From an uncultured Candidatus Saccharibacteria bacterium (lineage in GTDB: Bacteria; Patescibacteriota; Doudnabacteria; UBA920; 2-01-FULL-46-14), in the NCBI GenBank assembly GCA_964414215.1, contig CAYPVQ010000001.1, positions 1 to 46,990 of the forward strand: a stretch of 46,990 nt of DNA. The letters run 5' to 3'. Numbering within the stretch: the stretch's first letter is position 1; the number at the start of each line of letters is the position of its first letter. This document shows positions 775-46,990 of this stretch, piece by piece. Made by a program: the position numbers and the translations under genes. The notes under the pieces were generated by a model. It searched no databases. It had not been told where the DNA came from and saw only the letters and a list, made by a program, of their open reading frames with translations.

Positions 775-829
775 CCTTTCTCCCCCTGCTCCAACCCCGA
801 TCGGAGATAGGAGAAGATGAAGAGGGGGT
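775..829. repeat. GC-rich nested-palindrome element, family 1 (intergenic copy)
   Basis: Sequence ccctttctccccctgctccaaccccgatcggagataggagaagatgaagagggggt. It is nearly identical in reverse orientation to 6169-6229. Related copies are at 16856-16903, 18394-18452, 30479-30537, 37056-37096 and 41584-41627. Confidence 0.8.
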
Positions 830-878
830 TATCATTCCCCTCCGCCAAAAACCCACCCCCCGCAGACGTGTATTATCA

Positions 879-894
879 TGTTACCATGGTAACA
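879..894. promoter_or_regulatory. operator-like perfect palindrome TGTTACCATGGTAACA, site 1 of 3
   Basis: 16-bp perfect palindrome read directly. The same motif occurs at 2066-2081 (one mismatch) and 2429-2444. All three are followed by gcta on the + strand. Confidence 0.6.
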
Positions 895-901
895 CGCTAA
901 C

Positions 902-932
902 AAAAGAGAAGGGCAGGACCAAAGTCCCGCCC
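902..932 (-). terminator. putative intrinsic terminator after the HisG-like gene
   Basis: The - strand reads gggcggga/ctttgg/tcctgccc (8-bp stem with one mismatch) followed by ttctctttt, about 10 nt past the stop at 942. Confidence 0.45.
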
Positions 933-941
933 TACTGATAA

Positions 942-1598
942 CTATTTACCCTCCTTAGATGTCAGCTTTTCAGCGAGTTCATAAAACAGTTCCGCTTTTT
1001 GCATGCTCGACCAATTATTACGGCCAAGCAGGACAGGCGAAGAGCTGTCCAGTACGTCCACCACTTTGAGTTCGTTGACCTCCAGAGATTCACCAGTCTC
1101 GGTAATGGTGACGCCAAAGCGGCACCGATGAGGGATCCGGGCCTCTACTGACCCGGAAATCGCGACGACCTTAACTTCCAGCCCCAATAACAGGCCCCGT
1201 TCTGTCCAGTTAGGAAACTCCGTGCAGACCTCTTCCCCTTCGCCGGGCGCGGAAGCACTTTCGCCCTTCGCGGCGACGAACACTACCTGACACGGATAAT
1301 TCGTTCGCTTGCTATAAGAAAAGCAAGCCCATCTTCTCAAAGAGTCGAGGTTCTCTGGATAATGAGAGTAAAACCACTCGTTATAACAGTCACTACCAGT
1401 AATCCCTCCCTCCACCATTCCTTCATGAATGGAATTTGGAATATCCCGGGGATGCACCCACACAATAGTCTTCACGAGCTTGTGGCCAATCTCCACCCAA
1501 TGCCGACGTGTAGGATCAGGAATGTTAATTCCTGACCTTCGGAACAGTTCGATCGTCTTCTGCTGCAAACTGCCGGTTGGCAATGCGATCGTAAGCAT
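942..1598 (-). CDS. hisG: ATP phosphoribosyltransferase-like protein, short (HisG-S) form
   Basis: The start was trimmed to the ATG at 1598, which is preceded by GGAGGG. MLTIALPTGSLQQKTIELF matches the HisG N-terminus. IPNSIHEGMVEGGITGSD and GSVEARIP...TITETGESLEVNELK match the HisG core and PRPP-loop pattern. At 218 aa it lacks the long-form C-terminal regulatory domain. Confidence 0.65.
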   Translation of the reverse strand: MLTIALPTGSLQQKTIELFRRSGINIPDPTRRHWVEIGHKLVKTIVWVHPRDIPNSIHEGMVEGGITGSDCYNEWFYSHYPENLDSLRRWACFSYSKRTNYPCQVVFVAAKGESASAPGEGEEVCTEFPNWTERGLLLGLEVKVVAISGSVEARIPHRCRFGVTITETGESLEVNELKVVDVLDSSSPVLLGRNNWSSMQKAELFYELAEKLTSKEGK

Positions 1599-1609
1599 TG
1601 ATTTCCCTC

Positions 1610-1900
1610 CTATCTGATCGGGTTGCCGTGCGGGTCGTGGCAGGAGCAAGGAATGATTCCCGGCATACATCGCTGCTTCGGGACACGAACGATCCCCGCC
1701 CAAGTTGCACCGGCGTCGAACCTTCCTGCACAAAAACCCTTTTCCCAATCGTTTAGCATCGAGCAGGATTGAGACTCCCCGGCCAATCGAAAGAACCACA
1801 TCCTTCCGCCATCCGCGAGAAGCAGTTTGCATCCGTCCGTGTTCTGATCGCCAATAATCTGACGAATCTCCTCTACTTGATCTGCGGTCTTAATCTCCAT
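1610..1900 (-). CDS. hypothetical protein upstream of the HisG-like gene
   Basis: The ATG at 1900 is preceded by GAGGAGG at ideal spacing. Only the first ~35 aa look protein-like; the rest is Cys/Trp/Arg-rich and the DNA is unusually GC-rich. Confidence 0.35.
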   Translation of the reverse strand: MEIKTADQVEEIRQIIGDQNTDGCKLLLADGGRMWFFRLAGESQSCSMLNDWEKGFCAGRFDAGATWAGIVRVPKQRCMPGIIPCSCHDPHGNPIR

Positions 1901-2065
1901 ACTTCCTCCTCAAAAAATTCGCTGCCGGAATTGGCAACGAAAAACCCCTGCGCTTTGCAGGGGCGGGGAAGATGCGCTAATTAACCAATACCACACCTAA
2001 CCCGACCCTGCAGGCATAGAGGCGACAGTGTGGTGATCATTGATATTATTTTGCGTGTTGTATCG

Positions 2066-2081
2066 TGTTACCATGTTAACA
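2066..2081. promoter_or_regulatory. operator-like palindrome TGTTACCATGTTAACA, site 2 of 3
   Basis: 15/16 match to the perfect palindrome. It lies ~165 nt upstream of the 1900 start and 52 nt downstream of the TrpR-like stop. Confidence 0.5.
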
Positions 2082-6168: not shown

Positions 6169-6229
6169 ACCCCCTCTTCATCTCCCCCTATCTCCGACCG
6201 GGGTCGGAGCAGGGGGAGAAAAGGTGGGG
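6169..6229. repeat. GC-rich nested-palindrome element, family 1, abutting the nrdJ stop codon
   Basis: Sequence accccctcttcatctccccctatctccgaccggggtcggagcagggggagaaaaggtggggt. It is the reverse complement of the 775-829 copy with a few substitutions. Confidence 0.8.
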
Positions 6230-8749
6230 TCACCCGCATTTCGAAAATCCGCACAGATCGCAGGTGAGGCAGCCTTCTTTCATCGTGAGGTTACTGCCGC
6301 AATCAGGGCAGGCCGGGGCAAAACCAAGATTGGCAATAGACATAGTCTGGGCGGCGTGGCCATTGGTGGTCTCTTGCCCGGTTTCCAATTGACCGGCCAA
6401 AACCATTTCCTCCGGGGTCGGAGAACTGGTTTTGGGAGACTCTGCTTCGGCAAATTTCAGATTAAGCTCGGCCTGCCCGCGTCTGACATGATTCTCCAAG
6501 ACTTTGCCAATGGCATCCGGAAGGGAATGGATAGCTCCGCCATTAGCAAAAACCATATCTGGCCCTCTAATCCCTTTGAGCTGATCAATAATCTCGATCA
6601 AAGCAATCCCCGAACGCAGGGCCAAAGAAATCATTCGGCAAATTGCCTCACTCTGGGCTTGAAAAAATCCCCCGGCTTTGCCCAGCTGCGAAAATACTTC
6701 AAAAGGCCCGTGTTCGTCTTCATTTATGGTTACAAACAAGTTGCCATAAGAGGTCCGCACCCGATAAGTCATGCCCTGCATTACATCGGGACGTTCTCGC
6801 GGGGTGGCTTTTCCTGCTAAACCGGCAGACTCGCTGCCATTGACTACTTGGCCAGTCAAAACCTTCAAGGCCTTGCTCCCCACCGTGTTTTTTTCGGAAA
6901 GAGAAACTGCTTCCAGCCCTGGAGCTAAACTTTTCGCTTTGTCCAAGTTTTTATTAAGATTTAAAACCTGGACCTGGCGGGAGCCGTCCCGATACAAAGT
7001 GCAACCTTTGCACCCTAATTTCCAAGCAAGGATATAGCCATCCTCAATATCTTTAACGGTAGCTTCATTGGGAAAGTTAATGGTTTTGGAAATGGAATTT
7101 TCCACATATCTTTGAAAAGCGGCTTGGGCGCGGATGTGATCCTCGGCCCGAATATCCATGGAAACGCGGAAAACATTTTTCAGGTCTTCGGGTAGGCCGG
7201 CAATATTCTGAAGTGATCCTTCAAAAATAATTTTTTCCATAAGTTCCTCACGGTACAACCCGCGTTCCCGTAAGGCTTTTTCCAAATATTGATTCACATA
7301 GCGGTAGGTATGACCATCTTTGTCCTGCTTGGTGTAAGAAAGCGCGAAGTTGGGTTCAATGCCCGAGGAAGTATCAAAGAACATGGAGATAGAGCCAGTC
7401 GGGGCAACGGTCGTAACCATGGTGTTGCGGCGCTTGATGCCGTTTCTGGTAGCCCAGGTTGAACTAGGCCATGCTGGAAACGCTCCCTTTTCGGAGGCGA
7501 TAGCCACAGAGGTGCGGTGCGCTTCTTCTTGAATGGTCTTCATCACCAGCTCCCCCGTGGCAAAACCTTCCGGGGAATCATAGCGAATCTTTAACTCATA
7601 AAGCATGTCAGCATAACCCATGACTCCTAAACCCAAGCGCCTGGTGTTTTTGGACATGTCTTGCACTTCTAGGACTGGATAATCAAATAAATCAATGACA
7701 TTGTCTAAAAATCTCGTGGCAACCATACTTGCGTGTTTGAGGTGTTCTAGGTCCAATTTCCTGTCTTTGACAAATGGCGCAAGATTAATCGAACCCAAGT
7801 TACAAACGTCATAGGGCGGTAAGCCCTGTTCCCCGCAAGGATTAGTCGCTTCAATCGGGGTTTTGGGCATGGTGTTGGTGCGGTTAAAAGCATCAAGGAA
7901 AACTACCCCAGGCTCGCCATTATGCCAAGCATTAGTAACAATTTCTTGGTAAAGTTCGCCGGCTGTAAGATCAACTTCTTCAATCTTGACTACCACGCCA
8001 AAGCGATCCCTCGTAATGCGGCGGGGTTTCATTTTTTGGCCATTAAATCTACAAAACCATGGGTGCTGAGGATTTTCCGTCACGGCGCGCATAAACTCGT
8101 CAGTCATCCCCACCGAGATATTAAAATTTCGAATCTCTCCTTCTGTCCGCTTGCAGTACACAAAATCTAAAATGTCTGGGTGATCTACAGGCAGGATCGC
8201 CATGTTTGCGCCGTGCCGGCCCTGCTGTTTGATGACCCCAAAGGCTTGGTTATACACTTGCAAAAACGAGACTGGACCCGAGGCCATACCCACGGAGGTT
8301 TTGACATAGGTCCCAGCAGGCCGCAACCTCCCGAAAGAAAAACCTAAGCCCGACCCCGCCTTTTGTAAAAGAGCAGCGTCTTTGAGAGTCTTAAAAATTC
8401 CTTCCATACTATCTTCAATCGGCAAGACAATGCAGTTAGCAACCACGGGGGAAGGTGCTCCGGCATTGGTTATGGTACGGCCAGCCGGGGTAAATTTTTT
8501 GTTGGCAATGATGTCAAAAAATTCCCGCTCCCATTTTTCGATCTGTTCTTGGCTTTTGCCGTAAGTTTTCTCAACTTCGGCCACGGCATGGGCAATGCGG
8601 TGAATCATCTCCGCCGGAGTTTCTTGACTCCCATCGGAACGTTTAACCAAATAGCGCTTGCGCATCACCCGTAGGGCATTCTCGGAAAAAGCTTCATTGA
8701 CTGCTTGAGCTTCCTGCGGGGAAAGAAACTGATGGTTTTGCTCATTCAT
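6230..8749 (-). CDS. nrdJ: adenosylcobalamin-dependent (class II) ribonucleotide reductase
   Basis: 839 aa with RNR catalytic-core motifs (NPCGEQGLPPYDVCNLGSINL, TVAPTGSIS). The C-terminal zinc ribbon CPDCGSNLTMKEGCLTCDLCGFSKCG is typical of class II enzymes. The start overlaps nrdR by 4 nt. Confidence 0.9.
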   Translation of the reverse strand: MNEQNHQFLSPQEAQAVNEAFSENALRVMRKRYLVKRSDGSQETPAEMIHRIAHAVAEVEKTYGKSQEQIEKWEREFFDIIANKKFTPAGRTITNAGAPSPVVANCIVLPIEDSMEGIFKTLKDAALLQKAGSGLGFSFGRLRPAGTYVKTSVGMASGPVSFLQVYNQAFGVIKQQGRHGANMAILPVDHPDILDFVYCKRTEGEIRNFNISVGMTDEFMRAVTENPQHPWFCRFNGQKMKPRRITRDRFGVVVKIEEVDLTAGELYQEIVTNAWHNGEPGVVFLDAFNRTNTMPKTPIEATNPCGEQGLPPYDVCNLGSINLAPFVKDRKLDLEHLKHASMVATRFLDNVIDLFDYPVLEVQDMSKNTRRLGLGVMGYADMLYELKIRYDSPEGFATGELVMKTIQEEAHRTSVAIASEKGAFPAWPSSTWATRNGIKRRNTMVTTVAPTGSISMFFDTSSGIEPNFALSYTKQDKDGHTYRYVNQYLEKALRERGLYREELMEKIIFEGSLQNIAGLPEDLKNVFRVSMDIRAEDHIRAQAAFQRYVENSISKTINFPNEATVKDIEDGYILAWKLGCKGCTLYRDGSRQVQVLNLNKNLDKAKSLAPGLEAVSLSEKNTVGSKALKVLTGQVVNGSESAGLAGKATPRERPDVMQGMTYRVRTSYGNLFVTINEDEHGPFEVFSQLGKAGGFFQAQSEAICRMISLALRSGIALIEIIDQLKGIRGPDMVFANGGAIHSLPDAIGKVLENHVRRGQAELNLKFAEAESPKTSSPTPEEMVLAGQLETGQETTNGHAAQTMSIANLGFAPACPDCGSNLTMKEGCLTCDLCGFSKCG

Positions 8750-10622: not shown

Positions 10623-10711
10623 TAATACTAAAGGCTGGGTAAAAAATCAATCAAGGCCACCCTTCGACCATTCGACAAGCTCATGGTGGTGAGCAGAGTC
10701 GAACCACAAGC

Positions 10712-11962
10712 TCAGGGCAAGAATTGTTTGAAAAACTTCCGGAGCCGTTCAATACTCGCATGCTCCAAAACTTTCTTGGCAAACCGGCTCACGCCAGCTC
10801 CCGCAGTGGGGCTTAGATATTCACTTCCCCATAAAACCAAACCAACGGCTGTAGCATATGCCGGATCGTCCACGCGGTCAATGATGGTGGAAATATTTAG
10901 AGGAAAACCAATCTGGACAGGCAGGCGTAATTCTTTTTTGGCCAGTTCGACAATGCCGGGCATCTTGGCACCCCCGCCCGTCAAAATGGCTCCAGCAGGC
11001 AACTGGCCATCTCGCCCTACTAACTTTAATTGTTTATTGACCATACTAAAAATTTCTTCCAAGCGCGCCTGAATAATTTCTGCCACATGGTGGCGGGAAA
11101 CCTGGCCTTCTTCTTGTCTATGGATCTTAGTTAAATTGATTTCTTCATCTTTCTTGACTGCTTGAGCCAAAGCAGTTCCGTACTCTCGCTTGACGATTTC
11201 GGCAACATCCACTGCAGTGCGGAGCCCAATTGCCAAATCATTGGTAATGTGGTCAGAACCCACAGGCAAAACCGAAGTATGTAACAAATCAGACTCTTCA
11301 AAGGCCACCACCCCGGTCGTTCCCCCTCCCAGTTCGATGAGCACTACCCCGAGCTCTTTTTGCCGCTTGGTGAGGACGGATTGGGCCGCGGCCAAAGGGG
11401 CCAAAACCAAATCATCAATATCAATCCCGGCTTGCATCACGCATTTGGTCAAATTTTTGATAAAGGGAATAGAGGCTTCAATAATCTGGCTGTCTACCTC
11501 GAGCCTGATTCCGGTCATTCCCACGGGGTCCTTAATGCCCGCTTGCCCGTCCACGACAAAATCTTTCGGGATAACATGCAAAATTTCCCGGTTAGTAGGG
11601 ATTTGAATTGCTTGACTAGCATCAATCACCCGGACCACGTCAGACTCGGTAATTTCCCCATCCGCCCGCGCAATGGCAATCACCCCGTGGCTCTCGAGCG
11701 AAGAAACGTGCGCGCCATTTAACGAAACCACGGCGTGTTCCGTGGGAATTCCCGTCATTCGTTCGGCTTTTTCTAAGGCTGTCGAAATCGCGGATACTGC
11801 CTCTTCAATATCAATAATCACTCCGCGGCGGATCCCCGCGGCGAGGGCTTCTCCCACCCCGATAATACTCGGTGGTGATTCCGGCTGCTCTCGTTTTCCC
11901 ACCACCACCCGAATGGTAGTTGTCCCGATATCCAAGCCGACTAAAATTTGGTCAGACGCCAT
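10712..11962 (-). CDS. ftsA: cell division protein FtsA
   Basis: 416 aa with an actin-like ATPase pattern (VGLDIGTTTIRVVV, ELGGGTTGV, LTGGGAKMPGI). It lies directly upstream of ftsZ. Its stop codon lies inside a repeat element (~10655-10716). Confidence 0.9.
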   Translation of the reverse strand: MASDQILVGLDIGTTTIRVVVGKREQPESPPSIIGVGEALAAGIRRGVIIDIEEAVSAISTALEKAERMTGIPTEHAVVSLNGAHVSSLESHGVIAIARADGEITESDVVRVIDASQAIQIPTNREILHVIPKDFVVDGQAGIKDPVGMTGIRLEVDSQIIEASIPFIKNLTKCVMQAGIDIDDLVLAPLAAAQSVLTKRQKELGVVLIELGGGTTGVVAFEESDLLHTSVLPVGSDHITNDLAIGLRTAVDVAEIVKREYGTALAQAVKKDEEINLTKIHRQEEGQVSRHHVAEIIQARLEEIFSMVNKQLKLVGRDGQLPAGAILTGGGAKMPGIVELAKKELRLPVQIGFPLNISTIIDRVDDPAYATAVGLVLWGSEYLSPTAGAGVSRFAKKVLEHASIERLRKFFKQFLP

Positions 11963-16248: not shown

Positions 16249-16893
16249 ATGATTATGGGCATTAAACTAAAAAGGATTTCTAACGTGGTGAGATTAATCG
16301 TGGGCCTGGGTAATCCCGGGAAAAAATATGAAAAAACCAGACACAATCTGGGTTTTCTCATTCTCGATGAACTTGCAAAAGAACTGGAGATTAAATTTAG
16401 ACTACACAAAAAAGTTCTTTCCGAGATTGCTAAAACTTCGGAAATTATCCTCGCCAAACCTCAAACTTTTATGAACAATTCGGGCAAAGCCGTCCAAAAA
16501 TTGCTTACAACTTATCTCCCTACGGGAGATCTTTACGACAACTTATCTCCCTACGGGAGATCTCCCGAAGGGAGACAACTTACTAACTTAATTGTCGTTC
16601 ACGACGAAATTGATCTCCTGTTTGGCACATTGCGATTGTCTCAAGATTCGGGAGCGGCCGGACACAAAGGAGTAAAATCAATAATTGCCGCCATTGGCAA
16701 AAACTTTATGAGATTACGTATTGGGATCGAAAATCGGGAAAAAATCAGGATTCCTGAAACCGAAACTTATGTGTTGCAACCCTTCACAGAAGAAGAGCAA
16801 CAACAATTAAGGCAGACAATCATTCCCGAGGCTTTGGATGAAATTGAGAAATTCTACCCCCTCTCTTTCTTCCGCCTTAGGCGGAGGAGATGA
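16249..16893 (+). CDS. pth: peptidyl-tRNA hydrolase with a repeat-derived internal insertion and C-terminal tail
   Basis: Contains LIVGLGNPGKKYEKTRHNLGF and VVHDEIDL. About 20 extra residues (LPTGDLYDNLSPYGRSPEGRQ) come from the hairpin repeats at 16507-16582. The stop codon lies inside the palindromic element at 16856-16903. Confidence 0.85.
   Translation: MIMGIKLKRISNVVRLIVGLGNPGKKYEKTRHNLGFLILDELAKELEIKFRLHKKVLSEIAKTSEIILAKPQTFMNNSGKAVQKLLTTYLPTGDLYDNLSPYGRSPEGRQLTNLIVVHDEIDLLFGTLRLSQDSGAAGHKGVKSIIAAIGKNFMRLRIGIENREKIRIPETETYVLQPFTEEEQQQLRQTIIPEALDEIEKFYPLSFFRLRRRR
16507..16582 (+). repeat. tandem hairpin repeats inside pth
   Basis: acaacttatctccctacgggagatct occurs twice exactly (16507-16532 and 16538-16563). 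A third hairpin, tctcccgaagggaga, follows, and then acaactta recurs. Confidence 0.85.
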
Positions 16894-17093
16894 AAGAGGG
16901 GGTCGCAAAATAAATAGTGCCCTCTGACCTACCAACGAGCGTAAGCCCGTATCCGATAAAAGGATCCTGACTTAAACTTTAGGTTACTTGCGAGCTCTAG
17001 GAGGGATGAAACTCGCTTTGGCCACTCGAAGGTAGGAAGGAAAGCACTATTCCAGAAAAATAGCTTAGCAGTTTTTCCACAACCTGTCAAGAA

Positions 17094-18182: not shown

Positions 18183-18324
18183 ATCACGAATCATGAATCA
18201 TGAATTACGGGGCAGCCCTCACTCTCTCCCCCTTTCCGCCGAAGGCGGATCTCAGCCGAAGGCTGACCAGCCTCCGGCTGGCGCAAAAGCCTCTGGCGGA
18301 AAAATAAGAGGGGTAGGGGGAGTT

Positions 18325-27760: not shown

Positions 27761-27766
27761 GAGCTT

Positions 27767-28066: not shown

Positions 28067-28172
28067 ACATGATCCATCTCAACTCCGGAAATCTGATTTT
28101 CACCGTTAATTTCAGCACAGCTGCTGGCGGCGGATTTTAGAACCGGCTTTCTAAACACTATGTTTCCGAAAG

Positions 28173-28191
28173 CCGGCATCGCCGGTTTTTT
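28173..28191 (+). terminator. intrinsic terminator
   Basis: ccggc-atc-gccgg followed by tttttt. An alternative longer pairing is possible between accggctttc (28142-28151) and gaaagccggc (28168-28177). Confidence 0.6.
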
Positions 28192-28218
28192 AATTATTAG
28201 GGCCATCTTTCTACTAAT

Positions 28219-28856: not shown

Positions 28857-28861
28857 AGTTC

Positions 28862-29712: not shown

Positions 29713-29818
29713 TGACAAAAAAACAAAAACCTAGTAAAAGTTAAACTTATGAATTGCGAAGTCTCATAACTCACCCTCCCCTCTCTTATCTTAAGAGGGG
29801 GTTACGGGTCCCAATTCT

Positions 29819-33759: not shown

Positions 33760-34221
33760 TTATTTCCAAATCACAATCAATCTTCGAATTATCAAGTCGT
33801 TTTTGTTTCGCAAGAAATCCCCGGGAAAATCAAACCACACCCGCTGGAAAGTTTGCCGGTCAATCCTGCGCGGCCTACCCCACTCGGGGTCTTGCAGATA
33901 AATATATTTTCTATCCAGGCCTACGGCGACCGAATAATGCCCGTCGTCCTCGGAAAACCAGTCCACGATCACGGGAATGCCCCGCGTGAGATATTTGCGA
34001 ATATCCTCAAAAGTGGCGAAATTTTTGACACTTGCCTTGAGGCCCAGCTTTTTGGCCGCGCGCACGAGCCCCGCGGCTTCAACTCCACGCGGGCGTGTGG
34101 CTCCAGATAATTTTACCAAAGCCGCCTCGCTTCTGCGCACGCCAAAAAACTCCAGCACCATTTTAAGCGACGCCGGCCCGCAGTATCCCGTGGTTTGGCG
34201 AAAGGATTTGACTTTGAGCAT
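33760..34221 (-). CDS. stand-alone papain-like peptidase, C39-like family
   Basis: 153 aa. QTTGYCGPASLKMVLEFFG (catalytic Cys context), DDGHYSVAVG (His) and YLQDP. Confidence 0.7.
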   Translation of the reverse strand: MLKVKSFRQTTGYCGPASLKMVLEFFGVRRSEAALVKLSGATRPRGVEAAGLVRAAKKLGLKASVKNFATFEDIRKYLTRGIPVIVDWFSEDDGHYSVAVGLDRKYIYLQDPEWGRPRRIDRQTFQRVWFDFPGDFLRNKNDLIIRRLIVIWK

Positions 34222-34226
34222 AAATA

Positions 34227-34550: not shown

Positions 34551-34736
34551 AAACCAATTCTACCAAAAAACCGCTCCCTTTCCTATACCCTCTCCCCTCT
34601 GTGGGAGGGGGTGAGGTGGAAAAGCCTCGTCGATCGGCCAACCTGAAGCCTCTTTCAACCACTCTATCAAAAACTTTGCCCACCTCGCTGAAACAACAGC
34701 AAAGTGGGCAATACTAGAACAAACAACCGATGGACA

Positions 34737-35225: not shown

Positions 35226-35654
35226 CTATGCTTTCAGTTGATCCGGTTCAACTCTACCCACATCCAGTTTGTCAAAATCTTTATCGTAAGAAACTATTTT
35301 TGCCTTTCCTTTCACTATCGCGGGGTTTGACGCGATTAAAGCGTCAATAAATTTTATCCTCTGAAACTCATAAGTTTGAATCGCCAAAAAAGGATTTGTC
35401 TTGTCCTCTATTTTCAGGTTCTTGATGCTCAAAATGCCCTGAACGATTTTTATCACCTCGGCTTTACTGATTTTATAAAACCCCAGGCACGTCCAGACCA
35501 ATTCTGCTAAAACCAAACTGGAGGTGTAGGCCCTGATGTCTTTTCTGCTGATCGCTTCGATTAAATTTTCACACTCGGCCGCTTTTCGCGGGTCGTCTTT
35601 TACGACTATTCGCAAAAAAATGTTGGTGTCCAAAAAGAAGCTAGAATCTCTCAT
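35226..35654 (-). CDS. PIN-domain toxin (VapC-like), TA pair 2
   Basis: 142 aa starting MRDSSFFLDTNIFLR. It overlaps the upstream antitoxin ORF by 14 nt. Confidence 0.8.
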   Translation of the reverse strand: MRDSSFFLDTNIFLRIVVKDDPRKAAECENLIEAISRKDIRAYTSSLVLAELVWTCLGFYKISKAEVIKIVQGILSIKNLKIEDKTNPFLAIQTYEFQRIKFIDALIASNPAIVKGKAKIVSYDKDFDKLDVGRVEPDQLKA

Positions 35655-35880
35655 AAGACTTCTCCAGGGCCTGCCTCGCTTTCAAGGGGTTCGCCTTCTT
35701 TTTGACTTTGACCCTTTTGGCAATCTCCAAAAAGTCAGCCGACGGCATGATTTTGATTTCTTTTCCGTTTTTTCCAAGCTCGAGAAAAATTTTCCGGAAT
35801 CTCGTGAGGTTCAAAACCGCCCGCATATCTTTTGGGATAGTAATTTGGCCTTTTTTGGTTATTGTGGTAAAGTAAGGCAT
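35641..35880 (-). CDS. AbrB/SpoVT/MazE-fold antitoxin, TA pair 2
   Basis: KKGQITIPKDMRAVLNL is the swapped-hairpin AbrB-type motif. The start was set to the ATG at 35880; the track start at 35889 is TTG. Confidence 0.7.
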   Translation of the reverse strand: MPYFTTITKKGQITIPKDMRAVLNLTRFRKIFLELGKNGKEIKIMPSADFLEIAKRVKVKKKANPLKARQALEKSYERF

Positions 35881-35944
35881 GAAATTCAAAACTTACTTAT
35901 TTTCAAAATCTTACTTTTAGTATAACATGTACCAATAGATTATC

Positions 35945-36010
35945 AACCATCCGCAAGCTCGCCGGCCCGCAATACCCCGTGGTTTGGCGAAAGGATTTGA
36001 CTTTGAGCAT
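35945..36010 (-). pseudogene. duplicated 5' fragment (22 codons) of the C39-like peptidase gene
   Basis: 35961-36010 matches 34172-34221 at 48/50 nt. It translates MLKVKSFRQTTGYCGPASLRMV and then diverges. Confidence 0.8.
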
Positions 36011-36148
36011 TAATTTAATTCTACCAAAAAACGCCTCGGTGAGGCAGGCGCCGCAAAAGGGAGTTGTGCTGGAACTTGATTAAATCAACCCTAGTCTTTG
36101 AAGATCATCCTCTATCCACCGCGCCTGCATCTCAATCATACTTTTCAA

Positions 36149-36406
36149 TTACCCATACACGGTCACGGCAACTACAGGATCCTCTGAAACTGTGACACTC
36201 TTGGGGACCTGCTGGCCATCTTCTATCAATTCTTCGATTACCATCTGGGCGACTTCTTGGATGTTCCTTAACGCTTCTTCTCTGGTATGTCCCCAGGTTG
36301 AAGCCCCTTTATCTTCCAGTTCAGGAATAAATGCCCGCCAAGACTCGCCGTCTGGCTCAAGTGAAACGCGAAAAATATAAGATTTGTTTTGATCAATATA
36401 TTTCAT
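36149..36406 (-). CDS. HicB-like (UPF0150) antitoxin-family protein, apparently orphan
   Basis: 85 aa. The pattern YIFRVSLEPDGESWRAFIPELEDKGASTWGHTREEALRNIQEVAQMVIEEL is typical of HicB N-domains. No HicA-like ORF was seen adjacent. Confidence 0.65.
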   Translation of the reverse strand: MKYIDQNKSYIFRVSLEPDGESWRAFIPELEDKGASTWGHTREEALRNIQEVAQMVIEELIEDGQQVPKSVTVSEDPVVAVTVYG

Positions 36407-36853: not shown

Positions 36854-36926
36854 GCGCCCATAGCTCAGCTGGTAGAGCAGTGGCCTTTTAAGCCAACGGT
36901 CGCAGGTTCGATTCCTGCTGGGCGCA
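36854..36926 (+). tRNA. tRNA-Lys (anticodon TTT)
   Basis: GCGCCCA-TA-GCTC-AGCTGGTA-GAGC-A-GTGGC-CTTTTAA-GCCAA-CGGTC-GCAGG-TTCGATT-CCTGC-TGGGCGC-A. The cloverleaf is read directly, with a G/A mismatch at the base of the anticodon stem. CCA is not encoded. Confidence 0.85.
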
Positions 36927-37100
36927 TTTTGATTTTTTATTTTTAATTTTTGAACTTATTATCTATCCCGCTTCCCGATTGGCTTTATGGCCTAGGAGCA
37001 ACAGCAGAACAATGGGTGCTAAGGCCGAGTAGAAAAGCACGGTGTTGCTGACAAATCCCCTCGACCGCAGATCGGGAAGCAGGGGGAGAAAGGGTGTTTT

Positions 37101-38335: not shown

Positions 38336-40178
38336 TCATTTTTTCTCTTCAAACTTCGCGTCTTCGGGCTTATCTTTGTTTTTGTCTTCCCCGGTCTGCG
38401 TTTGTCCGCGGTCCCCTTCCTGTCCGTGCTTGTCTGCGTCTTTGTACATCGCGGCACCAACCTTCTGGACCTCCTGACTTATCTCATCCATCTGTTTTTT
38501 GATGGCCTCGACGTCATTGCCGTCTTTGATTTTTTTAAGTTCTGCCACCTTTGTCTCCAGAGAAGTCTTGGTCGCGGCGTCAACTTTATCACCCGCATCT
38601 TTCAAAGTTTTTTCCACCACGTGGATCAGCTGGTCAGCTTGGTTGCGGGTATCAATTAATTCGCGGCGCTGACGGTCCTCTGCCGCATGGGCTTCGGCTT
38701 CTTTTTTCATGCGCTCAATTTCCTCTTTGGAGAGATTGGACGAGCCGGAAATCGTGATGTGCTGTTCTTTGCTGGTAGCCTTGTCCTTGGCCGTAACTTT
38801 CAAAATCCCGTTGGCATCAATGTCAAATGCAACCTCGACCTGCGGGATACCGCGCGGGGCGGGCGGAATGCCGTCGAGAATAAATCGGCCCAAAGATTTA
38901 TTGTCCGCGGCCATGGGCCGTTCGCCCTGGAGCACGTGAATCTCAACCGAAGTCTGACTATCTGAGGCCGTGGAAAAAACTTGAGACTTGGCTGTGGGGA
39001 TAGTGGTATTACGCTCAATGAGCGGGGTAGCCACGCCGCCCAAAGTTTCAATTCCTAAAGTTAGAGGAGTGACATCAAGAAGCAGTACATCCTTGACTTC
39101 TCCGCCCAAAACTCCGGCCTGAATCGCCGCCCCTTTGGCCACGGCCTCCATGGGATCAACCCCACGTTCAACTTTTTTCCCCAAAAAATCTTCAACAAAT
39201 TTTTGGACCAAGGGCATACGCGTCGGGCCACCAACCATAATAATTTTGTCAACTTCTTGCGGGGAGAGTTTGGCATCCGCTAAAGCCTGCTCAATGGAGC
39301 CGCGCGTTCGCTCCACAATTGGTTTAACTAACTCTTCGAGTTTGGCCCGGGTAATTTTCATGGTCAAATGCCGCGGCCCTGTCTGCCGTGATAAACGGCA
39401 GATTGAGCTCCGTCTCAAGCGTAGTCGAGAGTTCAATCTTGGCTTTTTCCCCGGCTTCTTTGAGCCGGTTAAAGGCCATTTTGTCACTGCGGACATCGAT
39501 GCCCGAATCCTTTTTGAATTCACTGGCAATATAGTCAATGATGACATTATCCATGTCTGTGCCGCCCAAGTGCGTGTCTCCCGAAGTCGACACGACCTCA
39601 AAAACTCCCTGGCCAAAATCCATGATCGTGACATCCAAAGTCCCGCCGCCAAAATCAAAAACCATAATTTTTTGTTCGGCTCCGGCTTTGTCCAGGCCAT
39701 AGGCCAGCGCCGCGGCCGTAGGCTCGTTAATAATCCGGATCACTTCCAATCCCGCAATCTCGCCAGCATTTTTTGTTGCTTGCCTCTGCGCATCATCAAA
39801 ATAAGCCGGAACCGTAATCACGGCTTGCTTGAGTGGGGTACCCAAATAAGCTTCGGCATCTCGTTTAATTTTTTGCAAAATAAAAGCGGAGATTTGTTCC
39901 GGGGTATATTCTTTAGTGCGCAACGCAATTTTTTCTTTAGTACCCATCTTGCGCTTGACCGCATAAGCTGTGCCTTCGGGATTGGTTACCGCCTGGCGCC
40001 TCGCTGGTTCGCCAACCAAAAGTTCGCCATCTTTCGCAATGGCCACATATGAAGGAAAAGCTTTACCGCCCCCGACAGTAGTCCCCTCGGCCGAAGGGAT
40101 AATCACCGGCTTGCCGCCTTCAAGCACAGCGGCGGCACTGTTGGAAGTTCCTAAATCGATTCCGATAATTTTGGGCAT
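38336..40178 (-). pseudogene. dnaK: molecular chaperone DnaK, reading frame broken near 39380
   Basis: The N-terminal ORF (39324-40178; [19 protein letters not shown]) is correct up to ...LPFITAD. The conserved continuation [18 protein letters not shown]...GGPTRMP... is in the frame of the 38336-39700 ORF. Only one nt separates gac (D) from ggg (G). Confidence 0.85.
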
Positions 40179-41570: not shown

Positions 41571-41650
41571 ATTATCTTCCGTGCTTTCTCCCTCTCCTTT
41601 CAAGGAAGGGGGAGACAAAGAGGGGGTAAGTTCCAAATATTATTATACTT

Positions 41651-42603: not shown

Positions 42604-45495
42604 TTATCGATTCACAAGTACTCTTTTCAAGTACTGCCCGGTGTAACTTTTCTTGACCATGGCAACTTCTTCAGGGGTGCCCTCGGCCACGAGGTAACCG
42701 CCCTTTTCCCCGCCCTCCGGCCCCAAATCAATAACCCAGTCCGCATATTTAATCACGTGCAAATTGTGCTCAATCACAATTACAGTGTTGCCTTTGTCCA
42801 CGAGTTTGGTAAGGACATCCAAAAGCCGCTTCACATCATCAAAATGCAAACCCGTGGTCGGCTCATCCAAAATGTACAAGGTTTTGCCAGTCTGCATCCG
42901 CGAAAGTTCGGTTGAGAGTTTAATGCGCTGGGCTTCTCCGCCCGAGAGCGTGGTGGCCGGTTGCCCCAAATGCATATAGCCTAGGCCCACCAGTGACAGC
43001 ACGTCGAGTTTGCGGAAAATCGCCGGAATATTGCGGAAAAAAATCCGCGCCTCATCCACAGTCATTTCCAAAACATCGGCAATGGTTTGGCCTTTGTAGT
43101 GAATGTCCAGGGCCTCTTTGTTGTAGCGCTGGCCCTTGCACTCCTCGCAAGTCACATACACGTCTGGCAGAAAGTGCATCTCAATTTGAATGACGCCGTC
43201 GCCCGCACAAACCTCGCACCGCCCGCCTTTGACATTGAAAGAAAACCTCCCTGGGTGATAGCCGCGCATCCGCGCCTCGGGCGTTGCGGCAAACAAGTCG
43301 CGGATATAGGTAAAGACGCCGGTGTAAGTGGCCGAATTAGAACGGGGGGTGCGGCCAATGGGCGATTGATCAATACTGATGACTTTATCAATATGGTCTA
43401 ATCCCAAAATCTTTTTATGCTCCCCAGGAGCGTCTTTGGCATTGTAAAAGTAAGAGGCCAAGGCCTTGGCCAAAATATCATTTAAGAGCGTGGATTTGCC
43501 CGAACCAGACACGCCGGTGATGCAGATAAATTTTCCCAAAGGAATGTCCACGTTGAGGTTTTGCAGATTGTGTTCAACCGCTCCCATAATTGAGAGCTTC
43601 CGGCCATTCCCAGGGCGGCGGCGAGTGGGTACCGGAATAATTTCCAGACGGGCTAAATATTTGCCCGTGAGAGAGGTCGGGTGCTTTTTGATGGCTTGCG
43701 GCGGGCCAGCCGCGACCACCTCGCCGCCGTGTTTGCCAGCACCAGGGCCAATATCCACGACCCAATCTGCGGAAAGAATCATCTCTTCGTCATGTTCCAC
43801 CACAATTACGGTATTACCCAAATCCCGCAATGCTTTGAGTGTTGCTAAAAGCCTCGCATTATCACGCTGGTGAAGACCAATTGAGGGTTCGTCTAAAATA
43901 TACAAAACCCCGGTTAAGCCTGAACCAATCTGGGTCGCAAGTCTAATCCGCTGCGCTTCGCCTCCGGAGAGAGTATCAGCCGAGCGAGCCAGGGTGAGAT
44001 ACTCCAGTCCCACATTTTGTAAAAATCGTAAGCGGGCCCGAATCTCTTTGAGGATTTGTTTGGCAATCTTTTTTTCTTTGTCAGTAAGTTTTTTTTCCAA
44101 ATCTTCAAAAAAGTCTTGCAAGGCTCCGACATTCATGGCCGCGACATCAGTGATTGATTTTTGCGCGACCGTTACGGCCAAAACCTCGGGCCGCAAGCGC
44201 TTGCCGCGGCAAGTTGGGCAAAGCTTGAGGCGCATATACTGCTCAATCTCGCTTCGCATATAGTCAGAATCAGTCTCTTTGTACCGGCGCATGAGATTGG
44301 GAATTACTCCTTCAAAATCCCCCTCCCCATAGAGCACGAGATTAATGTATTTCTGGTCGAGATTTTTGACTGGCTCCATGGTGGAGAAGCCGTGATCTTG
44401 GGCGACTTCTTCGAGAATGCGGTCGTACCACGAAAGCCGGGCCGTGGTCTTGCTCCACGGCCGGATCGCCCCTTCTGCCAAAGATAAGCGCGGGTTAGGG
44501 ATAACTAGTTCGGGATCAACCTCCAGTTTTGTGCCGAGTCCCGTACAATCTGGACAAGCCCCGTGCGGAGAATTAAAGGAAAAATTTCGCGGATGAAGTT
44601 CTGGCAAAGCGACATGGCCCTCGGGACAGGCAAACTTTTGCGAGAGGATAATTTCTTTGTAACCCTCTCCGTTGCCTGCCCGCCTCTGGAGGGAGGGGAG
44701 GGGGGCGCCCGCAGGGAGGGAGGGGTCTTTACCAACAATTACGAGAATGGCTGTCTCATTTCCCAAATCCAGAGCCGTCTCCAGAGAATCGGCAATTCGA
44801 GCCCGGTCTTTTTTTTCCACGGTCAGCCGATCCACGACTACGTCAATCGAATGCTTTTTCTTTTTATCAAGATTCAAGGTCAAAGCCTCACCGAGATCCA
44901 TGAACGTGCCATCAAGGCGGACTCTCGCGTACCCCGCTTTTTTAATTTCTTCTAAAATGTGTTTGTGCTCCCCTTTGCGGTCTTGAACAAAAGGTGAAAG
45001 CAGGATAATTTTGGTACCCTCTGGATAGCCCAAAATTTGATCCGCCATTTGCGTCACGCTCTGGCCGGAAATTTTTTTGCGGCAAACCGGGCAGTGCGGC
45101 ACCCCAATGCGCGCAAACAGCAGACGCAGGTAATCGTAAATCTCGGTGACAGTGCCCACGGTGGAGCGCGGATTGTGAGAGGCTGATTTTTGGTCAATGG
45201 AAATCGCGGGCGAGAGTCCTTCAATCTGCTCGACATCAGGCTTGTCCATGAGACCCAAAAACTGCCTAGCATAAGCCGAGAGGCTTTCTACATATCGGCG
45301 CTGGCCCTCGGCATAAATCGTGTCAAAAGCCAGAGAAGATTTACCTGAACCAGAAATGCCGGTAAAGACAATTAATTTATGACGCGGCAAATCCACATCA
45401 ATATTTTTGAGATTGTGCACCTTGGCGCCGCGGATCCGGATGAGGCCAAATTCTGCTTTGTCTATAGACTTTGCTTTGGAATTGAGATTTTTCAC
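42604..45495 (-). CDS. uvrA: excinuclease ABC subunit UvrA with one in-frame palindromic insertion
   Basis: 963 aa with two ABC ATPase modules ([26 protein letters not shown] twice) and zinc modules. GTG start. Inserted segment [22 protein letters not shown]. Confidence 0.9.
44663..44727. repeat. GC-rich palindromic element inside uvrA
   Basis: Sequence accctctccgttgcctgcccgcctctggagggaggggaggggggcgcccgcagggagggaggggt. Confidence 0.7.
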
Positions 45496-45625
45496 AACGC
45501 GAGATTAGCCACCCCTTGGCGGATAAAAATAAAGTGGCCTCCATTGTAACACGGCTGTCAAGAATAATCAATAGTGCGCTGATCGCCTTAACCCAAAACA
45601 AAACAGGAGGCTGATCAACTTGCAA

Positions 45626-45901
45626 TCAACCCCCTGCGCCATGCTTGGTCGCGCCGATGCCGGCGCGAGTTAGGACAGCGGCCCGTGCTGGCAGTTGCTT
45701 CTGTTTGAGGCGAATCCGAAGGACGGGCCGGGACGGGAGCCAAACGACTCCATACGAGAACAATACAGCAGCCGCAATGAGAAGTACCCACTCGAAATGC
45801 GCCCCCCACCCCATTTCGAAGTATGCCGCCGCGGTAATGACTGCTAGACTCGCAGTCACATACAACTGTACTGCGAGTTTCCACCTTTGCTCCTTGCGCA
45901 T
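45626..45901 (-). CDS. small two-TM membrane protein
   Basis: 91 aa with a GGAGGGAGAGGAGG tract upstream of the ATG and two hydrophobic helices. Confidence 0.45.
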   Translation of the reverse strand: MRKEQRWKLAVQLYVTASLAVITAAAYFEMGWGAHFEWVLLIAAAVLFSYGVVWLPSRPVLRIRLKQKQLPARAAVLTRAGIGATKHGAGG

Positions 45902-45919
45902 CCTCCTCTCCCTCCTTTC

Positions 45920-46111
45920 TCACGAAATGGCGATCCGCTGAAACGACCGCAGAATCGCCCCGCCGTAAAACCAAACCAGAGCTACAATTATTGCCACTAC
46001 GACCGCCGCGACGAGCAGTAGCGCGGTCTGGACGAGAAACTTCGCGACCCTTCCTGCCTGATTAAAGGGCTCGCTGGTCCCTTCACCGAGAAATCCTAAG
46101 ATTCCACTCAT
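45920..46111 (-). CDS. small one-TM membrane protein
   Basis: 63 aa with AAGGAGG 6 nt upstream of the ATG. Contains the helix LLLVAAVVVAIIVALVWF. Confidence 0.5.
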   Translation of the reverse strand: MSGILGFLGEGTSEPFNQAGRVAKFLVQTALLLVAAVVVAIIVALVWFYGGAILRSFQRIAIS

Positions 46112-46137
46112 GAAAGCCTCCTTTGGAAAGATTTGCC

Positions 46138-46446
46138 TTAATTAAATCCCTTTTGGGCACCCCTTGTCAATTCCAAAAAGAAAAAGCGGCTTGCGGATTC
46201 GGGAAGGTCCCGAACGCGAGCCGCATCAGAGGGTAAAACAGGCTCCGAATAAACCGATAGGGGCAATTGTCGTTCGGCTTGCTTCTTCTCCTGGCGGAAG
46301 CTAAGCCATGAGAAGAAGAAGATTATTAGCAGTATAAGCATGACTCCTGCTAATATCCACGTAACCATCCCGCATGGAATGAGCTGCGGTAGCCATCGGT
46401 ACAACTTACAGAGATGCGAAAGTCTTCTGGTTCCAACATCTCTCAA
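46138..46446 (-). CDS. hypothetical membrane protein (start uncertain)
   Basis: 102-aa ORF from a TTG start. It has one strong TM helix (VTWILAGVMLILLIIFFFSWL). The GGAGGAGG upstream is better spaced for a 29-codon ATG ORF in another frame. Confidence 0.3.
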   Translation of the reverse strand: MRDVGTRRLSHLCKLYRWLPQLIPCGMVTWILAGVMLILLIIFFFSWLSFRQEKKQAERQLPLSVYSEPVLPSDAARVRDLPESASRFFFLELTRGAQKGFN

Positions 46447-46520
46447 CCTCCTCCAGATTTGCCTCTATTTAATACCCAATCCGCACTGTTGTCAATGATA
46501 ATTATTGTCATTCCTTCATT

Positions 46521-46602
46521 CCTCCCCTAGAATAGGGGAGGTTAGGAGGGGTAGATTTAGCGCCATTAATACCTCCCCTTCCCCCTCCTATTCTAGGAGG
46601 GG
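46521..46602. repeat. ~82-bp compound palindrome upstream of uvrC
   Basis: It contains cctcccctagaataggggagg (46521-41) and cccctcctattctaggagggg (46582-602). An inner pair, ttaggaggggta / tacctcccctt, lies between them. Confidence 0.7.
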
Positions 46603-46620
46603 AACAAAAACCGCAACTAC

Positions 46621-46990
46621 AATGCCTAACTTGTCCAATAAACTCAAATCCCTTCCCCAAAAGCCCGGGGTTTATCTATTTAAAGATTCCCAGGGCGAGG
46701 TTTTGTATGTGGGTAAAGCCAAGAATCTAAAAAAGCGGGTACAGAGTTATTTCACCCCTCACCCTCCCCTCTCCCCCAAGGGGCGAGGGTTAAGGAGGGA
46801 AATCGCTGATCTGGACTATATCATCGTCTCCTCGGAACTTGAAAGCCTGATGCTGGAGAATAACCTCATCAAGCAGTACCGGCCGCGGTTTAATGTCCGA
46901 TTGCGCGATGACAAAAATTATCAGTTTATAAAAATTGATTATTCTTACGAGATCCCGCAGATATATACTGTTCGCAAAATAACCCCCTCT
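46621..46990 (+). CDS. uvrC: excinuclease ABC subunit UvrC, 5' partial (runs off the window)
   Basis: The ATG at 46621 is followed by the GIY-YIG domain (KPGVYLFKDSQGEVLYVGKAKNLKKRV...LENNLIKQYRPRFN). An in-frame palindromic insert is at 46754-46800 (PHPPLSPKGRGLRRE). Confidence 0.85.

Follow-up and report, generated by a model that had tools for sequence, protein, structure and literature searches.

Rickettsia palindromic elements (RPEs) are dispersed palindromes that occur both between genes and, in frame, within Rickettsia genes (Ogata et al. 2000, as summarised in PMC10969869). This report concerns a family of short GC-rich hairpins with a comparable distribution, found in a 46,990-nt stretch of DNA (GC ~48%) from an uncultured Candidatus Saccharibacteria bacterium (contig CAYPVQ010000001.1, hereafter referred to as the window). 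Two other kinds of palindrome bear on it. Repetitive extragenic palindromic (REP) sequences feature a conserved GTAG, and a HUH/Y1 single-strand transposase acts on them; the GC clusters of yeast mitochondria are short, GC-rich mobile palindromes of a lower-GC, compact genome, with coding insertions, and those named 'byp' break the reading frame and are bypassed by the ribosome.

A family of nucleases is also relevant. In a survey of PD-(D/E)XK proteins, Vsr, DUF559 and DUF2726 form one group, whose members include a group I intron homing endonuclease (PMC3424549). The EDxHD prototype characterised by Taylor et al., I-Bth0305I, is homodimeric; its nuclease domain is Vsr-like, the core of its target is a pseudopalindrome of 14 bp, and it frequently nicks, while relatives are known from inteins, from introns and as free-standing genes (PMC3239194). 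In a cyanobacterial genome paper, a DUF559 gene was equated with this homing-endonuclease family (PMC9403480).

I propose, with moderate confidence, that the hairpins of the window are RPE-like selfish elements that represent the sites or remnants of a DUF559 homing element. The first part of this proposal draws on the window and its relatives, while the link to DUF559 would extend to the window copies from loci in other genomes.

A hairpin family in the window

The window contains ~20 copies, intact and decayed, of one related family of nested GC-rich palindromes. Its members are 25-62 nt long, with composites reaching ~109 nt, and have a common polarity, the 5' arm being rich in C/T and the 3' arm in G/A, and the core ACCCCCTCTTYRTCTCCCCCT-loop-AGGGGGAGA...GGGGGT. 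De novo repeat finding in the window gave two interrelated groups. Type A is a nested palindrome of 55-62 nt, ACCCCCTCTTCATCTCCCCCT-[variable inner hairpin]-AGGGGGAGAAAAGGTGGGG, with copies at 774-829, 6169-6224, 18394-18452, 30479-30537, 41584-41627 and 16856-16903, and a half copy at 37056-37096. Type B is a palindrome of ~26-46 nt, (CCTCACCCT)ACCCTCTCC-loop-GGAGAGGGT(GGGGTGAGG), with copies at 18843, 29777, 30126, 31134, 34586 and 46765.

A first-pass annotation of this DNA had claimed a high density of such elements for 47 kb, and the counts agree. The motif ACCCCCTCT occurs 10 times in the window against 0.41 expected, a number reached in 0 of 100 shuffles, and CTCCCCCT has 11 matches where 1.96 would be expected. 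There are 21 hairpins whose 5' arm is pyrimidine ('C-first'), compared to 7.15 in dinucleotide shuffles (shuffle maximum 11), while the mirror 'G-first' hairpins, with a purine 5' arm, are depleted (2, compared to 7.35). A C-first hairpin remains C-first when reverse-complemented, so that this polarity belongs to the DNA element and not to the direction of transcription.

I then used a covariance model, R1, that includes 28 copies from other organisms only and no window copy. The seed of R1 and of the cross-phylum set described below was the left arm as found in the window; the right arm and the loci sampled through DUF559 are independent of it. The copies are as follows, with R1 matches (and their coordinates, where these differ) and DNA fold z-scores in brackets.

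773-829, minus strand: type A, decayed, intergenic, between the RHH antitoxin gene 454-693 and the hisG-like gene 942-1832 (R1 E=0.033; z=0.16)
6169-6230, plus strand: type A, intact, ACCCCCTCTTCATCTCCCCCT-[inner hairpin]-AGGGGGAGAAAAGGTGGGG (R1 E=2e-8; -21 kcal/mol, z=-4.7)
10655-10716: element of a different repeat family (…CCTTCGACAAGCTC…) at the ftsA stop (weak fold, z=-1.2)
16546-16575: twin mini-hairpin TCTCCCTACGGGAGA / TCTCCCGAAGGGAGA in pth, overlooked in the first pass (R1 weak, E=3.8; z=-5.2)
16856-16903: type A variant in pth, a near-perfect 48-nt palindrome (R1 E=1.5e-6; z=-4.3)
18214-18322, plus strand: nested composite with outer arms CTCCCCCT (18226) and AGGGGGAG (18315-18322) and three inner hairpins (z=-3.2)
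18389-18452, minus strand: type A, in frame in capA, encoding PSPPAPRSEVGEIGGDKEGV, net +12 aa relative to orthologues (R1 18389-18448, E=1.5e-4; z=-4.8)
18833-18880: type B, CCTCACCCTACCCTCTCC-loop-GGAGAGGGGGTGGGGGTGAGG, in a variable loop of capA (R1 18844-18876, E=6e-3; z=-3.6)
20985-21008: small member, ACCCTCTCT-loop-AGAGAGGGT, directly after the bAvd stop, overlooked in the first pass (R1 E=1.5e-3)
27500-27600: composite of two hairpins between the arms CTTTCTCC and GGGAGAAAAGG, intergenic, weak or decayed (no significant match in the R1 scan of the window; z=-2.6)
29772-29806: type B, intergenic, 13 nt upstream of the topA start (R1 29773-29802, marginal, E=0.09)
30120-30185, plus strand: topA site 1, type B hairpin and second GC-rich arm, aa ~101-126
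30479-30537, plus strand: topA site 2, intact type A, aa ~220-240, with the window-specific insert at aa ~226-240 (R1 E=1.3e-12; z=-4.5)
31108-31159, plus strand: topA site 3, two nested or adjacent hairpins, type B at 31134-31159, aa ~430-447, with the window-specific insert at aa ~438-452
34587-34617: type B, intergenic (R1 34587-34612, marginal, E=0.12)
37056-37096, plus strand: right half of type A, then TTTTTT, downstream of tRNA-Lys (36854-36926)
41575-41627, minus strand: type A, decayed, 14 nt upstream of the probable hrcA ATG (41570) (R1 E=0.02; z=-0.5)
44662-44727: 66-nt in-frame insert (22 aa) in uvrA, a decayed palindrome with termini ACCCTCTCC...GGGAGGGGT (below significance in the R1 scan; z=-0.2)
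46510-46604: two hairpins, CCTCCCCTAGAATAGGGGAGG and TCCCCCTCCTATTCTAGGAGGGGAA, in inverted orientation, upstream of the uvrC ATG (46622) (R1 46510-46552, E=2e-3, and 46580-46604, marginal, E=0.2)
46754-46800: type B in uvrC (SYF[TPHPPLSPKGRGL]RREI), in the GIY-YIG domain region (R1 46755-46800, E=0.023)
46982-46990, plus strand: start of a further copy, ACCCCCTCT, inside uvrC, cut by the window end, overlooked in the first pass

R1 matches and the two repeat groups thus fall at nearly all of the positions where the first-pass annotation had placed related palindromes, in intergenic, intragenic and gene-end settings. Most of the members that it had listed are retained; 27500-27600 is a weak one, and three copies had escaped it. 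The well-kept copies fold as DNA with z-scores of -4.3 to -5.2, while several others are decayed, with z ~0 (774-829, 41584-41627, 44662-44727, 46754-46800 and the stretch 30120-30190 at topA site 1), and cannot be told apart by folding alone. The z-scores are conservative, since shuffled C-rich/G-rich sequence also folds well. A scan of the window against Rfam at the gathering threshold returned two tRNAs only, and no known RNA family on the hairpins.

At least nine copies lie inside intact genes, and about half of the window copies are within coding sequence, in both orientations. Pfam confirmed the gene names given previously, and the window encodes nrdJ, nrdR, ftsZ, ftsA, lytR, pth, dprA, a PGA_cap/CapA-like gene (capA), an F420-ligase-like gene and topA, followed by dnaJ, dnaK, grpE, hrcA, uvrA and uvrC, as well as toxin-antitoxin pairs and a 9.4-kb island. 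I compared these genes to syntenic loci of three relatives (L001, L002 and L003), the first of which has the order lytR-pth-dprA-capA...F420 ligase-topA...dnaJ-dnaK-grpE-hrcA...uvrA-uvrC. In orthologue alignments, protein segments that are found only in the window coincide with the palindromes, at three sites in TopA and in CapA, UvrA, Pth and the 5' region of capA; alignments of LytR, DprA, the F420-ligase homologue, DnaJ and GrpE showed no such inserts.

The alignments also bear out the claim that every intragenic copy keeps the frame: the net length of each is a multiple of three, and each is free of stops in the host frame. This is a survivorship filter, rather than a demonstrated property of the element. 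Across the elements, 72 of 108 reading frames are open where ~57 are expected, a modest effect that rules out six-frame stop-free arms as a defining property, and the 47-mers from other phyla are mostly open in 2-4 frames.

The three TopA inserts were examined in an alignment of 26 homologues, in which they are lineage-specific and in frame. The closest homologues, from a search of 5.8 billion proteins, are 68-75% identical, and those that are named belong to Candidatus Doudnabacteria and other Patescibacteria. No other record of the window TopA was found; the source is thus a bacterium of the candidate phyla radiation (CPR), related to Doudnabacteria, and the databases contain no close strain. 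The site 1 insert is missing from 20 of the 25 closest homologues, and that of site 2 from 24 of them. At the DNA level, the palindrome at the three sites differs by lineage, and some lineages are empty: site 1 of L001 holds a canonical 47-nt type A element (R1 E=2e-13), site 2 of L002 has two other hairpins, and other hairpins are present at site 3 in L002 and L003, with R1 also matching L002 at site 2 and L003 at site 3. The same protein loops have therefore been hit repeatedly by different family members across related genomes. In an AlphaFold model of the window TopA, of modest overall quality (mean pLDDT, the predicted local distance difference test score, of 68.8), all three inserts are in coil with pLDDT<50 (aa 103-121, 223-237 and 434-447), and two are at the tips of beta-hairpins, suggesting that they are tolerated loop expansions, read through in frame.

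In Pth, the element at 16546-16575 falls in an 18-aa insert that is missing from Pth of L001 and L002. The second element, at 16856-16903, encodes the final ~12 residues (YPLSFFRLRRRR) and, as noted in the first pass, the stop codon (16891-16893); the orthologues end earlier. In capA, the copy at 18394-18452 is an in-frame insert and that at 18833-18880 a family member in a variable loop. The string of small hairpins reported before the start of this gene is present, in the form of one nested composite (18214-18322), and the orthologues lack ~31-40 residues in this region. Since the gene has two possible starts (18166 or ~18325), the composite is either a 5' leader or part of an N-terminal extension. 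The uvrA segment is missing from L001 UvrA and is thus a window-specific in-frame insert, in decayed form. In uvrC, the family match holds (E=0.023), but the segment is of about normal length, so that a net insertion is not established.

Taken together, these alignments indicate that the copies in topA (three), capA, pth and uvrA are lineage-specific in-frame insertions, and that the intragenic copies, in the surface loops of housekeeping proteins, appear to be translated as linkers of the form Pro/Ser/Leu...Gly/Glu/Arg. The remodelling of proteins that had been suggested is therefore seen in loops and at one C-terminus; the word 'actively' goes too far, with several copies decayed and the nearest TopA 75% identical.

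Other repeats are found at these TopA loops in the relatives, namely in-frame AAATC-type runs (encoding KSKIKNQKS) and AGCTACA tandems (encoding KLQATS):

L002, 10280-10330: in-frame TopA repeat
L003, 4154-4213: in-frame TopA repeat
L001, 11237-11272: in-frame TopA repeat

Similarly, the peptide ELRAQNSEL is present at two sites of one EPSP synthase (P0123, P0124 set). In-frame repeat insertion may therefore be common in genes of CPR bacteria.

Between genes, the type A copy at 774-829 is complementary to that at 6169-6224 (91% over 56 nt), and the latter adjoins the nrdJ stop codon (6230-6232, minus strand; nrdJ assigned by Pfam), as had been reported. The half copy at 37056-37096 is 89% complementary to 18396-18431 and is terminator-like. 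At the position equivalent to 29772-29806, the hairpin of L001 is a different one. In the flanks inspected, where the empty sites are too diverged (~75% amino acid identity) to set the junctions, T or TA precedes many copies. The proposal that the elements supply start regions was not supported for hrcA and uvrC, where they sit upstream of the real starts. For hrcA, a 22-codon N-terminal extension had been read from 41584-41627; in the alignment, the L001 HrcA orthologue starts at a Met matching ATG 41570, which places the element outside the coding sequence. The extension from TTG 41636 is thus probably an artefact of open reading frame (ORF) calling, and the element a 5' leader.

The element at the ftsA stop is, as stated in the first pass, a different one, outside the C-arm/G-arm family. 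This ftsA-end family (…CCTTCGACAAGCTC…GTCGAACCAC…) recurs in distant phyla (loci L002, L008, L063, L079 and L096), and its 14-mer, with at most one mismatch, has 8 matches in fetched loci of other phyla against ~0.4 expected from a rough estimate.

The hairpin in other phyla and its DUF559 neighbours

I next searched for the exact 21-nt left arm, ACCCCCTCTTYRTCTCCCCCT, in one genome per GTDB species. It was found in at least 107 stretches from at least 15 phyla, with ~1 expected under uniform base composition (a rough estimate). The carriers include Doudnabacteria and the window's relatives, other CPR groups, Candidatus Binatia (dozens of copies in one metagenome-assembled genome), Deltaproteobacteria, Ignavibacteria, Bacteroidota, Dehalococcoidia, Acidimicrobiia, Verrucomicrobia, Planctomycetes, Spirochaetota, Saganbacteria, Margulisbacteria and others, whereas 2.9 million viral contigs (IMG/VR) gave 3 matches only. 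Among the matches listed, the right arm AGGGGGAGA, which the search did not constrain, completes the hairpin in 102 of 108 (~0.7% each by chance), and the outer GGGGGT is also present in 41. The 47-nt consensus is ACCCCC-TCTTTG-TCTCCCCCT-TAGCA-AGGGGGAGA-TTTAGT-GGGGGT, and the general form, of ~47 nt, is ACCCCC-TCTTYR-TCTCCCCCT-loop-AGGGGGAGA-nnnAGn-GGGGGT. Many of the foreign copies are also within long open frames. The family is therefore shared across phyla, and not private to the genome of the window.

Clustering of the ORFs in these hairpin-centred loci identified a single nuclease- or transposase-like family shared across phyla among the matches listed, a ~120-aa DUF559 protein (PF04480, E=1e-32). 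By hidden Markov model (HMM) search, it is present in 10 of the 107 loci listed and, in most of those inspected, is directly bracketed by family hairpins on both sides; in one of them (L098), the same two-hairpin composite lies upstream and downstream of the gene. Solute-binding proteins, an ABC ATPase, IF-2 and a CoA-transferase also recur near hairpins; on inspection of their sequences (without Pfam), these look like housekeeping genes or paralogue expansions, and they were discarded as partners.

In order to avoid selection bias for hairpins, 80 further loci were chosen from metagenome contigs by DUF559 peptide motifs alone, taken from a three-sequence alignment. In these, the density of C-first hairpins is 4.59/kb within 150 nt of the DUF559 gene, compared to 0.33/kb elsewhere. 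A hairpin is found within 150 nt upstream of DUF559 in 47 of 76 cases (62%), compared to 6 of 94 other ORF ends (Fisher p=2e-15), and within 150 nt downstream in 40 of 77 (52%), compared to 6 of 92 (Fisher p=2e-11); control genes overall have one at 6.5% of their ends. Hairpins are present on both sides in 29 of 73 cases. The two flanks are alike in 34 of the 80 loci, against a null of 5%, with 15 direct (up to 98 nt), 18 inverted and 1 ambiguous, and most R1 matches in the DUF559 loci fall at gene borders. In the DUF559 alignment (A2), E66, D68, G69, H72, D81 and R84 are invariant, and the EDxHD residues are conserved.

In nine loci, the DUF559 domain is embedded, without loss of frame, in a larger protein, and the linkers on either side of it are hairpin-coded:

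L037: in TatD (Pfam)
L157: in EPSP synthase (Pfam)
L150: in alanyl-tRNA synthetase (Pfam)
L162: in class II fumarase/Lyase_1 (Pfam)
L131: in the type I restriction subunit HsdR (Pfam)
L146 and L166: in N6/N4 methyltransferase proteins (Pfam)
L145 and L165: same arrangement, the latter resembling methyltransferase proteins by eye

In the seven Pfam-scanned ORFs, DUF559 splits or precedes the host domains, and only host domains and DUF559 were detected, with no Hint/intein domain. At the TatD locus, the upstream junction is the window's own arm, ACCCCCTCTTTATCTCCCCCT. These modules do not look like inteins, as the inserts appear too short (~120-170 aa) and the junctions are hairpin-coded. Close EPSP-synthase homologues have short, mostly unrelated inserts at the DUF559 site of P0121, one of them SP..RG..GG-like.

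Small (~95-aa), free-standing GIY-YIG nuclease genes were identified in two relatives, L001 (16462-16746, dnaK-grpE) and L002 (4894-5181, dprA-capA). Their syntenic places differ and the window has neither, which points to another type of small mobile nuclease gene in the lineage of the window.

Other features of the window

A diversity-generating retroelement (DGR) occupies 19438-22198:

19438-20484, minus strand: reverse transcriptase
20613-20984, plus strand: bAvd
21018-21152: template repeat
21520-21654: variable repeat, at the 3' end of the target gene 21503-22198 (minus strand)

Between its two repeats, 14 of 15 differences are at plus-strand T of the template copy, that is A on the gene strand, the adenine-specific signature. 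A third hairpin family, TGTCATTCCCGAyCTrATCGGGAATCC, is found at 19893-19935 and 20493-20535, around the reverse transcriptase gene. In Binatia and Deltaproteobacteria (for example L008, L059 and L067), a type A hairpin is nested in repeats of this third family, GGAATCC...GGATTCCCGC...GCGGGAATGAC.

The DGR is part of an island of ~9.4 kb (19453-28861) between capA and the F420-ligase-like gene, which also contains an rve integrase/insertion sequence (IS; 22431-23438), VIT1, a P-type ATPase, a YTP1-like membrane protein and a CsoR-type repressor; the equivalent interval in L001 has one 90-aa gene only. The heavy-metal P-type ATPase (24101-26275, minus strand) is split in two ORFs by a single in-frame TAG at 25376-25378 (...NQLGENTL*AGVMRLV...), which could reflect a pseudogene, read-through or a sequencing error. 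The dnaK gene (38336-40178) is frameshifted near ...LPFITAD, with overlapping ORFs in different frames (39324-40178 and 38336-39700), while DnaK of the relatives is intact (601-610 aa).

A 34-nt AT-rich palindrome centred on GTTACCATGGTAAC is present in three copies (867-900, 2054-2087 and 2417-2450) that flank a Trp-repressor-family gene (2133-2429) and the hisG-like gene, and are probably operator sites. Toxin-antitoxin modules (PIN/RHH, PIN/MazE-like and HicB-like) lie at 28-693, 35226-35889 and 36149-36406, the second flanked by a 55-nt direct repeat, 95% identical (34171-34225 and 35960-36014).

Origin of the hairpins and comparison with known systems

In the model that I favour, the hairpins would be selfish, non-autonomous DNA elements comparable to RPEs. 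By analogy to EDxHD enzymes, a homodimeric DUF559 nuclease would recognise the palindromic site and introduce a nick or a cut, after which repair would copy in hairpin-bounded DNA from a different locus. Recombination between the flanking hairpins may later remove the nuclease gene, leaving solo hairpins, and those of the window would be target sites or leftovers of such a loss. The nuclease would also account for the spread of the family across phyla and its uniformity. In a gene-dense genome, only copies between genes, or in-frame and stop-free copies in tolerant loops, would survive, and some intergenic ones may have been co-opted as terminators, as could be the case for 37056-37096 with its T6. 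More speculatively, the conserved T:T and G:T mismatches of the stem would suit a Vsr-type enzyme, if the site were extruded as a cruciform.

Several observations weigh against this model. No DUF559 was found, by Pfam or HMM, in the window or in L001-L004, nor in the other loci fetched from Doudnabacteria or from the genomes of two relatives, and DUF559 as the driver is therefore unproven for the window's lineage. The association of DUF559 and hairpins is equally expected if the nuclease gene homes into pre-existing hairpins. No clear solo hairpin is present at the P0121 module site among close EPSP-synthase homologues. In the flanks inspected, where empty sites are at ~75% amino acid identity, neither a target-site duplication nor a defined junction could be established, and several window copies are decayed (fold z ~0). 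Phages, with their three matches, are not an obvious vehicle. Finally, the left-arm match is partly circular, R1 and the cross-phylum set having been seeded with that arm of the window.

The most serious competitor, which I judge less likely, is an independent selfish repeat, spread by a REP-associated tyrosine transposase (RAYT)-like system, by another transposase or by gene conversion, with DUF559 merely landing in the hairpins, in the way class C group II introns use terminator hairpins. Homing endonucleases do classically insert into their own target site, the flanks of DUF559 mix direct and inverted arrangements with no fixed architecture, and solo hairpins far exceed the DUF559-linked ones in the CPR loci examined, in line with the absence of DUF559 from the window and its relatives. 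However, each side of DUF559 has a whole hairpin rather than one half of a split site, and for a non-coding hairpin of ~47 nt to be nearly identical in at least 15 phyla, a sequence-specific partner that moves horizontally is needed. No other nuclease- or transposase-like family recurs in the hairpin-centred loci of several phyla, among the matches listed.

It is improbable that the hairpins are functional host structures under selection (terminators, ribosome-binding site or leader structures, protein-binding sites) rather than mobile DNA. The copies at the ends of nrdJ, pth and bAvd, the T6 of 37056-37096 downstream of tRNA-Lys, the T-runs of some foreign copies and the GGAGG-like sequence that some place just before the DUF559 ATG would fit such roles. 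Most copies nonetheless have no T-run, about half of those in the window are in coding sequence in both orientations, the orthologous positions in relatives are empty or hold different members, and 21-nt arms common to several phyla cannot be convergent.

More doubtful still is that the elements are inverted-repeat miniature transposable elements (MITEs) of a DDE insertion sequence, mobilised in trans. The window does contain an rve integrase gene (22431-23438), and the elements resemble terminal inverted repeats by construction, but the inverted repeats around this IS (the best being TACATCGGTAACA, 13 nt) are unlike the ACCCCC/GGGGGT arms, and a MITE of the resident IS was rejected on account of these unrelated ends. 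The elements also fall well below the usual length of MITEs (PMC10969869), a target duplication was not made out in the flanks inspected, at empty sites of ~75% amino acid identity, and no transposase recurs beside the hairpins in other genomes, among the matches listed. Lastly, it is hardly credible that the intragenic copies are cut from the message or skipped by the ribosome like byps, for although the hairpins are stable and some inserts are within conserved domains (such as the GIY-YIG region of uvrC), all of them are multiples of three and stop-free in the host frame, which would be needless if skipped, and they are open in 4-6 of 6 frames compared to 2 of 6 for some intergenic copies, which fits selection for read-through.

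Beyond the window, I tentatively suggest that hairpin-bounded DUF559 cassettes form an undescribed class of mobile element, in which the hairpin (~35-60 nt) serves as both terminus and target. It is put forward with the same reserve, and as a whole, that such cassettes may move between phyla and insert in frame into essential genes without intron or intein, leaving solo hairpins that would reshape protein loops in compact genomes, those of CPR bacteria among them. If this is true, much of the length variation of CPR proteins, and their 'PSP...GEG'-type low-complexity loops, would stem from one selfish hairpin family, and would be neither adaptive change nor assembly error. DUF559, a very widespread domain of unknown function, would gain a testable one, and homing endonucleases a new mode of persistence, that of a hairpin-bounded gene translated in frame and free of introns and inteins. 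In practice, the elements confound the calling of gene starts, for instance those of hrcA and capA, inflate the number of orphan ORFs, and affect the alignment and structure prediction of CPR proteins; they could also mark horizontal exchange between distant phyla of one habitat. The cross-phylum distribution and the DUF559 link make the mechanistic hypothesis directly testable.

Among known systems, bacterial MITEs (Correia/NEMIS, ERIC, BOX and Chunjie; PMC10969869) are similarly non-autonomous and hairpin-forming, and sometimes generate in-frame fusions, terminators or promoters. They are however usually >100 bp and AT-rich, with IS-matching terminal repeats and target-site duplications (PMC10969869), none of which were found for the window elements. 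The byps of yeast mitochondria differ in that the window elements keep the frame and are evidently read through. The REP/REPIN-RAYT system is closer, with short (20-40-nt), imperfect palindromes in many dispersed copies, solo copies that far outnumber the enzyme-linked ones, and a putative enzyme gene bracketed by repeat copies, often inverted. In contrast, REPs are extragenic and species-specific, while the window family is often intragenic and crosses phyla, and the enzyme linked to it is a PD-(D/E)XK/Vsr-like DUF559 nuclease; no Y1/HUH RAYT gene was detected among the Pfam-scanned ORFs of the window, and none recurs in the 107 hairpin-centred loci, among the matches listed.

DUF559 shares the Vsr-like fold and the E-D-x-H-D residues of the EDxHD enzymes, and by analogy to I-Bth0305I (PMC3239194), a homodimer with a pseudopalindromic target would fit a hairpin site. 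The known EDxHD members are in group I introns or inteins, or free-standing in phage genomes; the DUF559 proteins described here are ~120 aa, have no NUMOD domains, are bounded by hairpins, and are found in frame with no splicing element detected. In the literature, of which coverage was incomplete, no paper was found that connects DUF559 with hairpin repeats of dispersed type or with insertion in frame without an intein, and both this link and the cross-phylum distribution are undescribed as far as checked.

The resemblance to RPEs consists of palindromes both between genes and in frame within unrelated housekeeping genes of a small-genome bacterium, apparently translated and tolerated at the protein surface. 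RPEs are ~100-150 bp, confined to Rickettsia, with a conserved peptide per family, and the review consulted describes no such nuclease partner for them (PMC10969869). The window elements, by comparison, are 25-62 nt, with a variable, expandable loop, and encode different peptides through differing frames and orientations; their family is present in at least 15 phyla, and elsewhere linked to a nuclease. In-frame palindromes being already known from Rickettsia, the window extends an RPE-like phenomenon to a new group of hosts, through an element that is new and much shorter.

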